Positions 11,077-15,818 of a stretch of DNA of 33,842 bases are shown in pieces. The first letter of the stretch is position 1. Each line of letters starts with the position of its first letter. This stretch comes from Candidatus Aenigmatarchaeota archaeon (GTDB lineage Archaea > Aenigmatarchaeota > Aenigmatarchaeia > GW2011-AR5 > JACRAC01). Under the pieces are notes generated by a model that was not told the DNA's origin, did no database searches, and worked only from the letters and a program-made list of their open reading frames with translations. Where the stretch lies: contig JACRAC010000002.1 in assembly GCA_016213555.1 (NCBI GenBank), positions 1 through 33,842 of the forward strand. The letters run 5' to 3'. A program made the translations under genes and the position numbers.

Positions 11077-12657
11077 ATGACATCTAGGTCTAAAAGTTTA
11101 TTTAATACTGCAGATCCTGATATGAGAAAACTTCTTGAGAAAGAGGCAGTGTTGACTGATTTAGGTAATGCTTCTGGACTTGCTTATTGGGATCAAGATG
11201 TAAATATGCCAGAAGGTGGAGAAGATGCAAGAGTAAAACTTATCTCTACTTTGGATACTATACAACATGATCTACAGACAAGAAGATATTTAGATAGGCT
11301 TATAACAAGACTTGAGGGCAAAGTAGATAATGGAGATTTTTCTGAATACGATAGGGCTCTTTTAAGAGAACTTAGAACTGATTATGATTTAGCATCTAAA
11401 CTTCCTAGAAGATTTGTAACTGAACAAAGCAAAGTTAATTCTAAAGCTCAACAAACATGGAAGAGAGCTAAAATGGCTAATGATGGAAAAGGAGATTTTT
11501 CATTATTTGCTTCTGATCTGGCAGCTGTGTTTGATTTAAAAAGAAGAGAGGCAGATTATCTGGGATTTCAAGGACATCCATATAATGCTTTGTTAGATCA
11601 GTATGAACAAGGGTTAACTGTAGAGCAACTAGACACTATTTTTCCTGTATTAGTAGATGCTACAAAAACCATTCTAGATCGTGTAGAAGGTGCTGAAGTA
11701 GATAGAAGTTTTCTTTCTTTAAAATATCCTAGAGGAGTTCAGTGGTCTTTTGCCAGAAGACTGTCTAGATCTTTAGGATTTGATTTTACTAGAGGAAGAC
11801 TAGATAGAGCAGTACACCCATTTACAATAAAGTTTGATCCTACTGATGTAAGAATAACTAATAGAGCAGATCCTAATTATTTGCCTGCTGGAGTATTTGG
11901 AGTTATTCATGAAACAGGACATGCTCTATATGAACAAGGAGTTGATAGAGGACTGTCAGGAACAAGACTTGCTACAGGTACATCTATGGGTATACATGAA
12001 TCTCAATCAAGATTTTGGGAAAACTATGTAGGTAGAAGTAATGAATTTTGGGAATATTGGTTTCCAATGCTTCAGAGAAAATTTCCAAGTCAATTAGGAT
12101 CTGTTAATGTAGATCAGTTTGTTAAAGCGATAAATGCTGTTAGGCCTTCTCCAATTAGAATAGAGGCTGATGAAATAACATATAATATACATGTAGTTAT
12201 TCGTTATGAAATTGAGAGAGATTTATTATCAGGTAAAATACAAACAAAAGATGTTCCAATGATTTGGAACGAGAAAATGAGATCGTATTTAGGAATTGAT
12301 CCTCAAACAGATTCTCAAGGAGCTTTACAAGATGTTCATTGGTCTAGTGGTCTTGTAGGATATTTTCCTTCATATTCTCTTGGAAATATATATGCAGCTC
12401 AGTTTTATAATTCTTTAAGAAATCAGCATCCAGATATTGATAGAAGTATTTCTAAAGGCGAGTATGGTTTTATTAGACAATGGTTGAGGGAAAATATACA
12501 TAGACATGGAAGTGTTTATAGACCAGGAGATTTATCTACGAATGTTACAGGTGAGCAATTAAATCCACAATATTTTGTTGATTATGCTATGAATAAATTT
12601 GGACGGTTGTATGGAATTGATTTAAAAACATCTCAACTTAATCCACTTCATGCCTAG
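11077..12657 (+). CDS. Carboxypeptidase M32 (Taq/Pfu type)
   Basis: HPF, D.RIT, HETGH, HESQSR, IRIEADE, G.LQDVHW and GYFPSY.LG motifs. Confidence 0.96.
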   Translation: MTSRSKSLFNTADPDMRKLLEKEAVLTDLGNASGLAYWDQDVNMPEGGEDARVKLISTLDTIQHDLQTRRYLDRLITRLEGKVDNGDFSEYDRALLRELRTDYDLASKLPRRFVTEQSKVNSKAQQTWKRAKMANDGKGDFSLFASDLAAVFDLKRREADYLGFQGHPYNALLDQYEQGLTVEQLDTIFPVLVDATKTILDRVEGAEVDRSFLSLKYPRGVQWSFARRLSRSLGFDFTRGRLDRAVHPFTIKFDPTDVRITNRADPNYLPAGVFGVIHETGHALYEQGVDRGLSGTRLATGTSMGIHESQSRFWENYVGRSNEFWEYWFPMLQRKFPSQLGSVNVDQFVKAINAVRPSPIRIEADEITYNIHVVIRYEIERDLLSGKIQTKDVPMIWNEKMRSYLGIDPQTDSQGALQDVHWSSGLVGYFPSYSLGNIYAAQFYNSLRNQHPDIDRSISKGEYGFIRQWLRENIHRHGSVYRPGDLSTNVTGEQLNPQYFVDYAMNKFGRLYGIDLKTSQLNPLHA

Positions 12658-12715: not shown

Positions 12716-13585
12716 ATGGGCATTGAAGAAGTTTTTAATGAAAATTTTGTAATACCTTTGGGAAATTACTATACCCCTGTTAATACTATTATTTATGGTT
12801 TAGTATTTGCTTTGGCAGTTTTCGGAGTTTATAAACTTCTCAGAAGAATGAATGTTGATATTGATAGAAATTTTGTAATAGGAATAGTTCCTTATGTTGT
12901 TCTTGGTAGCGTGCTTAGGGTATTGAGGGATGCAAAACTTCTTGATTACTGGTTTTTTGCATCACCGATAATCTATATGCTTTTGTTTGTAGTTGCTACG
13001 ATTACTTTGGTATTTAGCAAACAGCTGGAAAAATTTGCAAAAGCTGCTAAAAAGAAGTCAGGACTTACAGACTTTCTTTCAGATTATCATAGACTTTGGT
13101 GTTTATTAGGAATAATACTAGTTATTGCAGGATTTGTAATACTTTCCACAGTTGGTTACAAAAATTATTATGCAAGCGGTCTTATGTTAGGATTGGCTGC
13201 TATATGGGGAGCCATTCTTTATCTTGCTTATGAAGCTAGAGAAAAATTCGGGGAGAAATATAAATTCTTAAGTGTATTTTCCAAGGAAAACTGCTTGTTA
13301 TTAGGAATACATTTATTTGACGCTTCTACAACATTTGTTGCATTGACCTTCTATCCATATTATGAACAGCATGTGGTTTCTAACTTTGTTATAGGCTTTT
13401 TAGGACCTGCTGGACAATTTGTCCTTAAAATTGCTGTAGTTACTGTTGTATTATGGGCTTTGGACAATTACTTGAAGACAGACAAGGATAGCATTTACAT
13501 GAGAAATTTCATCAAGATAGCAATATTTATCCTAGGATTTGCACCTGGGTTTAGAAACTTCTTGAGATTAGGATTTGGAGTATAA
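12716..13585 (+). CDS. DUF63 family membrane protein
   Basis: Y..VNT..YG, P....G..LRVL.D, H.FDA.TT, Y.EQHV and LG.APG.RN..R...GV motifs. Confidence 0.85.
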   Translation: MGIEEVFNENFVIPLGNYYTPVNTIIYGLVFALAVFGVYKLLRRMNVDIDRNFVIGIVPYVVLGSVLRVLRDAKLLDYWFFASPIIYMLLFVVATITLVFSKQLEKFAKAAKKKSGLTDFLSDYHRLWCLLGIILVIAGFVILSTVGYKNYYASGLMLGLAAIWGAILYLAYEAREKFGEKYKFLSVFSKENCLLLGIHLFDASTTFVALTFYPYYEQHVVSNFVIGFLGPAGQFVLKIAVVTVVLWALDNYLKTDKDSIYMRNFIKIAIFILGFAPGFRNFLRLGFGV

Positions 13586-13720
13586 ATCTAAGCATTTTCT
13601 TTTTATAAAAAGAATTCTTGGTAGTTTCCTAATAGAAATTCGACAGCCATATGGTCATTCATAAATTTACCAGTTGATTAATGGATTTAAACTCTTTCTT
13701 CCTATATTGCTTTATTAGAT

Positions 13721-13810
13721 GGGCCGGTGGTCTAGCGGTTATCTTTAAAGAGCGTAAATGACGCCGCCCTTACAAGGCGGATATCGCAGGTTCGATTCCT
13801 GCTCGGCCCA
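13721..13810 (+). tRNA. tRNA-Val(TAC) with a 17-nt D-loop intron (13741-13757)
   Basis: GGGCCGG/TCGGCCC-A acceptor, CCGCC-CT TAC AA-GGCGG anticodon arm, GTTCGATTC. Intron removal restores GTCTAGCGGTTATGAC. Confidence 0.9.
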
Positions 13811-14323
13811 CTTTAAAAATTTTTTATTATGTTTAGAATTATTCGGGGTTACTAGTTTCCACCATCTAATTACGTTTTTACTACCCATGCTATAAATCCT
13901 GTATCTTTTATATATTTTTTTAGTTCTTTTGTCAAAACTTTCATGTTTGAAAATACTATGTTTAAATTCTAAATTTTTTAAAATTTGTGAGATATCTTTT
14001 TTTAGATTGTTACTATTTGTTACTATCTCAATAATTGGATATTTTTTATCTCTTAATCTAAAACAACCGTCAGAATCTATTATACCCCTTAAAAAAGCTA
14101 TTTGAAATTGTTTGCTTGAAAGTATCCATTTAGGTATTCTTATGTTATTTTTTGGAGATTCTTGTACATTCAAAATATCTCTGAAGAAATGAAAAACAGC
14201 TTTTGATCTCAGTCTTATTCTTATACCATTCTTATTTTTTAAGTAATCTAATTTAATGTTATTAAAATTGAACAAATTCTGCTTTCTTTTTATTAGTATA
14301 GACTCAAAATATTCTATATCATC
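13745..14323 (-). pseudogene. C-terminal 192 aa of a LAGLIDADG-family protein separated from its N-terminus by an inversion
   Basis: RIPKWI...AFLRGIIDSDG second LAGLIDADG helix. The frame is open upstream of the ORF-track start up to the breakpoint at 14323-14325. Confidence 0.85.
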
Positions 14324-14471
14324 TATCTCTTGCTGGAAAAAGTGTCTCCACAGTAGCTTTCATTGCCTCATTCCAAAATAAACCAACTACAAACACCATA
14401 GAAGTAACAATAGCTGCAAGAAACATCATCTTAAAATCTTGTTTTTCAGCAGATTCTTGAACAGAAGCCAT
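14319..14471 (-). pseudogene. N-terminal half of a DUF5654-like small membrane protein
   Basis: MASVQESAEKQDFKMMFLAAIVTSMVFVVGLFWNEAMKATVETLFPARD(R*). The F...L.WN.A motif is present and the ORF stops at the breakpoint. Confidence 0.75.
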
Positions 14472-14805
14472 AATAACCTAATAATTATTTAGTTTTTAGA
14501 AGTTAAAAAAGATAACTAGCGTGGAAATTTTAACATATATTCTCTGAAATATATTTTTGTGTTTTTGAGCTCTAGGCAAAGTTTGTATATATTCTACAAT
14601 CTTTAGTTACATATGAATCTGGATCTTTCAAATGTTGAATTTAGCAAGAATGATTTAAGACGTAGAATAAGAATTCCTGAAATTTTGTCAGAAGAACTAG
14701 CAGAAGATGTAGGGTTTCATATAGGAGATGGATATATGAGATCCAGAAAGAATAAAAACGATAATGAGATTAAATACGATTTTGATTATGCTGGTAGTAA
14801 TCTAG
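14323..14805. other. Precisely inverted 483-bp segment with 3-bp CTA/TAG inverted cores
   Basis: Flipping between CTA (14323-14325) and TAG (14803-14805) restores two complete in-frame genes. Confidence 0.85.
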
Positions 14806-14816
14806 CCTTGGTGTGA
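14613..14816 (+). pseudogene. N-terminal 64 aa of the LAGLIDADG-family protein
   Basis: IP..LSEELAEDVGFHIGDG first LAGLIDADG helix; terminates three codons after the breakpoint. Confidence 0.85.
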
Positions 14817-15025
14817 AATTTGCGACTGCTATGATTGTGACAGTGATAGTAGCATTTGCAATTTTCATATTATACAGATCTATAACTTTGGCTCAACGAG
14901 CTCAGAAAGGAGTTGTAAATCAGATGTCAAGACTAAAGATAGAACTAGATAAACAAAGAAAAGAAGCAGAAAGAAGACAGAAATTATTGGAAAAGGCTCT
15001 CGCAAAAGCCACTAAAAATCTATAG
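14804..15025 (+). pseudogene. C-terminal half of the DUF5654-like protein (TM helix plus coiled coil)
   Basis: SLGVKFATAMIVTVIVAFAIFIL..., which joins in frame to 14325-14471 after re-inversion. Confidence 0.75.
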
Positions 15026-15248
15026 TCTTTTTCTATGTTTGAAAAATAAATCTTTTATGCTCTGTGCTATAATTTGCTTTTCCTTATAGATAGTGTTGTT
15101 TTTAGAAGTTTTATAGATATTCATACACTTAACTTGGGGGAGATATTTTTACCATTCTTTTTCTATAGGTCTTTATAATACGAATATTCTTTTAGATACT
15201 TATTAGCCATTCAAAATTGTTAGTTTTAGAAAAAATAATATAAAATCC

Positions 15249-15818
15249 TTATGAAACACTTCTTATAAGATTCTCTAGCTCTTGATGAGTATTTATATAT
15301 AATTTGTTCAGCTCATTAAAATAAACATCATTTAATAAAATCTCTTTATCGTAGCATGTGAGCTTTGGAACGAGTTTTTGGTTTGTTACATCACCTTCTG
15401 GAAAAAAAGCGAGTGTGTTATGTGCAAATCTATTTATTATCTCCCTAATTCTGTCCATATTATCTGCTAAGTCTTTCAAATCCTTTCCCAATAATAAATA
15501 ATGTTCTTTTGTGAGTCTTCTGAAAAGTGATATTTTACTATTAAATGTCATAGGTCTTTCTTTAAGGATAAAATGATCAAAGATCTTTTTGATTTTCTCT
15601 TCATCCCCTGTAATATAGCCTTTAGGGTAAAATAGGTTTTGAATGAGTTGATCTAGAATTATTTCTATTTCTATGCTTATTGCAATTACATTACCTCTTA
15701 TTTCTCTTAATGCTTTCACTTGTAATTGCCAATCTTTAGCCAATTTCTTATCTATGTGAATTGATTGTCCTGGTGATATGGTTATCCAAGAATCTCTAGG
15801 TGCTATTGGGGTTTTCAT
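15249..15818 (-). CDS. HEPN-like (MtlR/Abi-type fold) protein with an altered Rx4H motif
   Basis: Helical pattern RG.VI....IE..LD, TF.SKI, and D.IREIINRFAH where RNxFAH is expected. Confidence 0.55.
   Translation of the reverse strand: MKTPIAPRDSWITISPGQSIHIDKKLAKDWQLQVKALREIRGNVIAISIEIEIILDQLIQNLFYPKGYITGDEEKIKKIFDHFILKERPMTFNSKISLFRRLTKEHYLLLGKDLKDLADNMDRIREIINRFAHNTLAFFPEGDVTNQKLVPKLTCYDKEILLNDVYFNELNKLYINTHQELENLIRSVS

Follow-up and report, generated by a model that had tools for sequence, protein, structure and literature searches.

A probable one-time inversion of about 480 bp splits a LAGLIDADG gene and a DUF5654 gene in an uncultivated archaeon

Described inversions and the split locus

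Homing-endonuclease genes pass through a life cycle of invasion, fixation, degeneration and loss. A LAGLIDADG gene of this type and its neighbour, a gene of the DUF5654 family, were found to lie in halves on opposite strands in contig JACRAC010000002.1 of Candidatus Aenigmatarchaeota archaeon (assembly GCA_016213555.1). The contig was analyzed over its entire length of 33,842 nucleotides, hereafter called the window; it is contig C10 of a 0.88-Mb genome bin (G000) of 62 contigs, 87% complete, and its G+C content is 31%. The arrangement is probably the result of a single, recent, fixed, conservative and homology-independent (illegitimate) inversion of about 480 bp, which killed the LAGLIDADG gene and, as collateral, the DUF5654 gene. 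As in the decay phase of a homing-endonuclease gene, a patchily distributed, multi-copy LAGLIDADG gene beside a tRNA gene appears to have been inactivated in one lineage. Unlike in that phase, a clean inversion takes the place of point mutations or a deletion, and a conserved host gene was lost too.

Invertons, the intragenic ones included, are defined by flanking inverted repeats that are recognized by an invertase (PMC10028968). Inversions that end in a coding region and cause premature stops are described in that study, and the present locus resembles them in both respects, with two divergent putative promoters on the flipped piece. It differs from them in that no inverted repeats and no invertase were found, only one orientation was seen and the split is not conserved in relatives. 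Spontaneous inversions at short inverted repeats that were verified experimentally in a Salmonella chemostat study had at least 12 bp of microhomology at their junctions (PMC3411829). Those inversions are similar to the present one in having arisen without a site-specific recombinase, whereas the joints described here have no more than 3 bp in common, a length within the range of chance. Neither an inverton nor a repeat-mediated spontaneous inversion fits the locus, because inverted repeats are lacking, no invertase was found and the homology does not exceed 3 bp.

The gyrase subunit-exchange model of Ikeda and co-workers was derived from extracts with E. coli gyrase and is a proposal that has not been proven even for that enzyme (PMC11164529). 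Illegitimate recombination by gyrase is like the inversion at this locus in being reciprocal and conservative, with almost no homology and no dedicated sites. The present genome gave no match to GyrA (at 87% completeness) and has a topoisomerase VI A subunit. This subunit, together with archaeal 23S rRNA at loci of relatives, marks the genome as archaeal, and from its size and composition it may be DPANN-like.

Present arrangement, restored genes and relatives

The features at the split are listed below, with positions counted from the first nucleotide of the window.

14323 to 14805, no strand: inverted segment; re-inversion restores both open reading frames (ORFs); 483 bp with both 3-bp cores, 477 bp between the cores
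14323 to 14325: left joint; CTA on the plus strand, a putative 3-bp microhomology, in the plus-strand context ATCAT-CTA-TCTCT
14803 to 14805: right joint; TAG on the plus strand, in the context TAATC-TAG-CCTTG
14613 to 14816, plus strand: N-terminal part of the LAGLIDADG gene; a 67-aa ORF of 64 native residues with the first motif, 3 foreign residues and a stop; no Pfam match on its own
13745 to 14323, minus strand: C-terminal part of the LAGLIDADG gene; 192 codons and a stop, with the second motif; Pfam LAGLIDADG_3, E 5e-11, and Hom_end, E 1e-4; the last 22 codons or so are antisense to the 3' part of the tRNA gene
14319 to 14471, minus strand: N-terminal part of the DUF5654 gene; a 50-aa ORF of 49 native residues, 1 foreign residue and a stop; Pfam DUF5654, E 2e-6, 28 bits against a cut-off of 23.8, profile positions 4-40 of 71
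14807 to 15025, plus strand: C-terminal part of the DUF5654 gene; 72 codons and a stop; the restored protein aligned without gaps to 12 homologues; no Pfam match on its own
14472 to 14612: divergent intergenic region of 141 bp, A/T-rich, with TATA-like stretches, inside the inverted segment
13721 to 13811, plus strand: tRNA gene beside the LAGLIDADG gene, found with ARAGORN

A scripted inversion of 14323-14805 resulted in an ORF of 256 aa on the minus strand and an ORF of 122 aa on the plus strand. The initial annotation, which was made from the sequence of the window alone, had claimed that crossing over at the shared TAG restores a 256-aa LAGLIDADG protein and a 122-aa DUF5654 protein, and this was confirmed by the scripted inversion and by gapless alignments to homologues. 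All of its sequence statements, namely the joint sequences, the TATA-like elements and the four gene halves, were reproduced. G007, a genome of another family of the same order, has an intact 244-aa gene (locus L008, 1319-2053) that aligned with residues 3-247 of the restored LAGLIDADG protein (48.6% identity), and residues 1-84 of the restored DUF5654 protein aligned at 46% to an intact 120-aa gene of the same-genus genome G001. When the G007 homologue was used as the query, the C-terminal part of the LAGLIDADG gene (13775-14323, minus strand) matched its residues 62-243 and the N-terminal part (14619-14801, plus strand) its residues 2-60, the latter at 54% identity. No gaps were observed at either joint in MAFFT alignments with 2 LAGLIDADG and 12 DUF5654 homologues, and the DUF5654 alignment runs through the second hydrophobic stretch. 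At the joints, ..SNL|DDIEYF.. of the restored LAGLIDADG protein stands opposite ..GNYPEDIDYF.. and ..ARD|SLGV.. of the restored DUF5654 protein opposite ..SRDEVGI... The translation of the restored LAGLIDADG protein contains both motifs with their acidic residues, ...HIGDGY... from the N-terminal part and ...IDSDGCF... from the C-terminal part, and none of the four gene pieces has an internal stop or a frameshift. As judged at the sequence level, the restoration of both ORFs is not a chance result.

The position of the breakpoints was scored against the two homologues for 5041 pairs, corresponding to a grid of 71 x 71. The highest score, 830, was obtained at four equivalent pairs from 14323/14805 to 14326/14802, which make up the CTA/TAG core. 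Pairs a few bases off on the same diagonal scored 821-827, and the breakpoints are therefore located only within a few bases and not to a single base. The claim that no base was gained or lost accordingly holds at codon resolution and does not extend to base-exact breakpoints. Of random breakpoints placed 200-550 bp apart in the window, 7.2% share a microhomology of at least 3 bp (P = 0.072), so the 3-bp core lies within chance and is not significant by itself. Comparison of the flanks in the inverted register gave matches at 10 of 38 positions, against 10.8 ± 2.9 for random positions in the window. Together with a search for repeats, which found no longer pair of inverted repeats flanking the segment and no insertion sequence or repeat at its ends, this agrees with the earlier observation that longer inverted repeats are absent. 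The restored ORFs, the gapless joints and the flank statistics bear out the description of the event as a conservative and reciprocal inversion with almost no homology, by which two divergent genes were disrupted.

Independent data were available as assembled contigs of three public runs from one groundwater study, here X1, X2 and X3; contigs of this kind drop rare variants. In X1, which may be the source run of the window, a 7348-nt contig with a depth of 28.8, built with a different assembler, covered 13600-15600 with 0 differences. Four other records from X1 were short matches to the tRNA, to a conserved spacer element described below and to a paralogue. X2, a second sample, gave five short contigs at a depth of 2-4, also with 0 differences, and one of these, 206 nt long, bridges the right joint (14743-14948, extending 60 nt to one side of the joint and 143 nt to the other). 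Only a tRNA-like piece of 37 nt was found in X3. Of the loose ends and joints that were listed, none lay at 14323 or 14805, and the restored orientation was found in no contig; both X1 and X2 show the present form alone. A second copy of the locus was not found in the genome. We conclude that the inverted arrangement exists in the DNA and predominates in both samples.

For comparison with relatives, 70 genomes of the order were searched, with G001 and G002 belonging to the same genus as the present genome. The gene order in G001 is a His-phosphatase gene, a DUF63 gene, an unrelated 267-aa gene, the tRNA gene and the DUF5654 gene on the same strand, and there is no LAGLIDADG gene. A tRNA-Val(tac) gene adjoins DUF5654 also at the loci L018 and L027. 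In the window, the DUF63 gene (12716-13585, plus strand, Pfam E 8e-57) and the tRNA gene are on the same strand as the restored DUF5654 gene. Relative to G001, the LAGLIDADG gene is, by gene order, an insertion between the tRNA and DUF5654. The LAGLIDADG search gave 51 matches in the 70 genomes, and a split over opposite strands was seen only in the two pieces from the window; the strongest of the other 49 matches are single open frames of 217-383 aa. The only PF18898 match found in the present genome was the N-terminal DUF5654 part in the window, which ends at about position 40-41 of the 71-position profile, whereas all 29 other DUF5654 matches reach position 55 or beyond. Because of the gene order in G001 and the lack of any such split among the LAGLIDADG and DUF5654 relatives, the inverted orientation is, on comparative grounds, derived and unique among the genomes searched. 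The restored orientation is accordingly the ancestral one.

A more closely related strain without the inversion was not found: with the C-terminal LAGLIDADG part as query, no related locus was seen in metagenome contigs or genome contigs. A search for homologous proteins returned three, the window's own 176-aa fragment and proteins of 240 aa (50% identity) and 296 aa (30%). An exact 27-nt pattern from the C-terminal DUF5654 part had 0 matches in metagenome contigs.

Course and cause of the inversion

The ancestral order would have been the tRNA gene (plus), the LAGLIDADG gene (minus), a divergent promoter region and the DUF5654 gene (plus). One break would have occurred after codon 64 of the LAGLIDADG gene, inside the first domain, and the other after codon 49 or 50 of the DUF5654 gene, in the loop between two hydrophobic stretches. 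The piece between the breaks would then have been rejoined in the opposite direction without detectable gain or loss. Each putative promoter would now read an N-terminal stub, and since each stub stops one to three codons past the joint, both genes are considered broken. Two routes could have led to this outcome. In the first, two cleavage complexes of a type II topoisomerase would have exchanged subunits; in the second, two double-strand breaks would have been made and the fragment rejoined flipped, a step to which the shared 3 bp may have contributed. That both joints are so precise slightly favours a concerted cut-and-religate enzyme over simple end-joining.

The lack of stops and frameshifts in the four pieces suggests that the event was recent, and we infer that it took place once and is irreversible. 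With its first domain interrupted by the break, the nuclease is most likely dead. DUF5654 might conceivably still be expressed as two separate parts, as the break falls in a loop and an in-frame GTG at 14813 in the C-terminal part overlaps the stop of the N-terminal LAGLIDADG fragment. Given the patchy, multi-copy distribution of this homing-endonuclease-type family, the LAGLIDADG gene met the end that is to be expected for a selfish gene, and the loss of DUF5654 is collateral damage.

A number of points weigh against a one-time, fixed and illegitimate inversion. Since contigs are blind to rare variants, a minority of cells with the opposite orientation may exist. X2 has no cover at 14203-14470, and X1 alone supplies the left joint. 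With the genome 87% complete, a recombinase gene may be unassembled. The intact state of the four pieces would also fit continued selection instead of recency. Finally, simple end-joining often leaves small gains or losses, and perfectly conservative joints are unusual for it.

If the inversion did occur in this way, the locus would be a natural case of a codon-precise reciprocal inversion without meaningful homology, fixed in an uncultivated groundwater archaeon with a small genome. Selfish nuclease genes would then be disabled not only by point mutations and deletions but also by inversions, with a conserved neighbour lost along with them. The locus also calls for caution in annotation, as two "short ORFs" and two "orphan C-terminal ORFs" are in fact two broken genes.

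An unlikely alternative is a one-off flip after two staggered cuts, with religation of the cohesive ends. The cuts would have come either from a nuclease that tolerates variation in its target sequence or from a site-specific recombinase at pseudo-sites. Candidates for the cutting enzyme are the LAGLIDADG enzyme itself, a paralogue or either of two tyrosine recombinases. Such cuts would account for conservative joints on both sides with a short shared core; the genome has several LAGLIDADG genes besides the two tyrosine recombinases, and one of the breaks lies inside the nuclease's own gene. LAGLIDADG enzymes leave overhangs of 4 nt, and tyrosine recombinases need an identical overlap of 6-8 bp. 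The two sites, however, share 3 bp at most and are otherwise unrelated; a core of this length is not beyond chance (P = 0.07), and the breakpoints are known only to within a few bases. Family searches of the whole 87%-complete genome gave 0 matches each for Resolvase, IS110 transposase and Ku, one sub-threshold match for a TnpB-like zinc ribbon, and two matches for Phage_integrase (tyrosine recombinase), located on contigs C26 and C1 and not on the contig of the window. The recommended search for recombinases thus came out negative for the serine (Resolvase) and IS110 families and positive for the tyrosine family. In the window itself no recombinase gene was found, in line with the initial annotation: the window has 55 ORFs of at least 80 aa, the 16 ORFs or ORF pieces that were scanned with Pfam turned out to be housekeeping or unknown, with no recombinase among them, and the whole-genome searches placed none on this contig. 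The suggestion of a trans-acting recombinase with a short core did not gain positive evidence, the 3-bp identity being within chance.

It is very unlikely that the locus reflects an unrecognized activity that inverts DNA conservatively and for which no more than three matching bases suffice, such as subunit exchange by topoisomerase VI or LAGLIDADG cutting at two sites, and that may be reversible at low frequency. If such an activity existed, a selfish nuclease and a membrane protein would be switched back and forth in the population with neither inverted repeats nor an invertase. Only reads that show both orientations would speak for a new mechanism; otherwise the event is of an ordinary kind.

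The initial annotation had put forward a phase-variable switch, in which a programmed and reversible inversion (inverton) toggles a harmful nuclease and its neighbour. The geometry is suited to such a switch, with two divergent genes being turned on or off at once by a conservative exchange, and all four gene pieces are still intact. Furthermore, intragenic invertons that cause premature stops are known, one of them in an archaeon (PMC10028968). The switch is nevertheless most improbable in view of the results given above: the flanks match no better than random positions and carry no inverted repeats, no invertase, resolvase or IS110 enzyme was found in the 87%-complete genome, the tyrosine recombinases are encoded on other contigs, the contigs of two samples hold one orientation alone and no relative is split alike.

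An artefact of assembly or amplification, for instance a chimeric join or a bubble of the assembly graph that was resolved wrongly, would be in line with the origin of the genome as a metagenome bin of 62 contigs and with inverted chimeras being a known amplification product, but the caveat raised at the outset was largely removed and this explanation is extremely improbable, as a different assembler rebuilt 2 kb at the locus without differences, the right joint was recovered from a second sample, both reciprocal joints are present and no inverted repeat is long enough to cause an ambiguous path in the graph.

The LAGLIDADG family, the tRNA gene and the spacer element

The LAGLIDADG family was found to be patchy and multi-copy, with matches in 30 of the 70 genomes of the order and up to five copies in each. 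With this query, nothing was found in the two same-genus genomes, G001 and G002. Eighteen LAGLIDADG loci of relatives, some of which carry archaeal 23S rRNA, were compared. The gene was located inside the 23S rRNA gene at three loci (L048, L051 and L052), 86 nt past the 3' end of 23S at one (L047), and overlapping or within 100 nt of a tRNA gene at five (L039, L043, L045, L050 and L054). The last codons of the G007 gene are antisense to the 3' end of a tRNA-Val(UAC) gene (L008, 2012-2053), which is the same geometry as in the window (13745-13811). A paralogue from the present genome, on contig C11, ends on the sense strand inside the 5' part of another tRNA (L002, 874-903). These positions suggest that LAGLIDADG genes of this family target or settle at the ends of tRNA genes. 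Because it belongs to a patchy, multi-copy family found at 23S rRNA and tRNA genes, the LAGLIDADG gene behaves, as far as its distribution tells, as a selfish gene of the homing-endonuclease type, with cleavage and homing as predicted activities. A group I intron (Rfam RF00028, 87 bits) was observed in the 23S rRNA gene of a relative (L048, 2389-2670; G054:C19), beside a LAGLIDADG gene of the same family.

Further LAGLIDADG domains were noted elsewhere in the genome. At C26:383-2217 (L028, L030 and L034), a frame of 265 aa for a tyrosine recombinase lies just upstream of an open frame of 1348 aa, and the latter has two LAGLIDADG_3 matches and is probably an intein-bearing gene. A frame of 914 aa on contig C27 likewise has two LAGLIDADG_3 matches.

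The tRNA gene at 13721-13811 was reported by ARAGORN as a 91-nt tRNA-Leu(GAG), with a weak A/T stem as its anticodon arm, and was not reported by the Rfam tRNA model at the gathering score. When 17 nt after the D-loop were left out, the remaining 74 nt matched the tRNA-Val(UAC) of G007. The gene is thus probably a tRNA-Val(UAC) with a 17-nt non-canonical intron in the D-arm. In G001, the tRNA upstream of DUF5654 (L024, 2989-3213, contig C57) appeared by eye to be interrupted at two or three places by inserted sequence (about 225 nt in total) and was reported by neither ARAGORN nor Rfam.

A conserved non-coding element of about 50-60 nt, ending in a TATA-like box, was found in the spacer between the two divergent genes, at about 14530-14595 of the window. 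The same element is present at L002 (about 1624-1707, C11), L003 (about 1500-1545, C3) and L004 (about 1500-1557, C14), and it lies 20-40 nt upstream of four genes of this genome. Of these genes, two are of the LAGLIDADG family (249-256 aa; the one on C11 was assigned by homology only and has no Pfam match), one encodes a 423-aa protein with LAGLIDADG and HTH domains and one a 361-aa protein without a Pfam family. Copies of the element are 71-87% identical in their DNA, although the proteins encoded behind them share no more than about 36% identity. Weak matches to the element were also seen in the relatives G002, G012 and G022 and in another contig of X1. The element may serve these genes as a common promoter or operator, or it may be a module at their 5' ends that is mobile.

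Further upstream in the window, a gene for an M32 carboxypeptidase (11077-12657, Pfam E 3e-172) is situated between the His-phosphatase gene and the DUF63 gene. These two genes are adjacent in G001, and the M32 gene is therefore a second difference in gene content near the locus.

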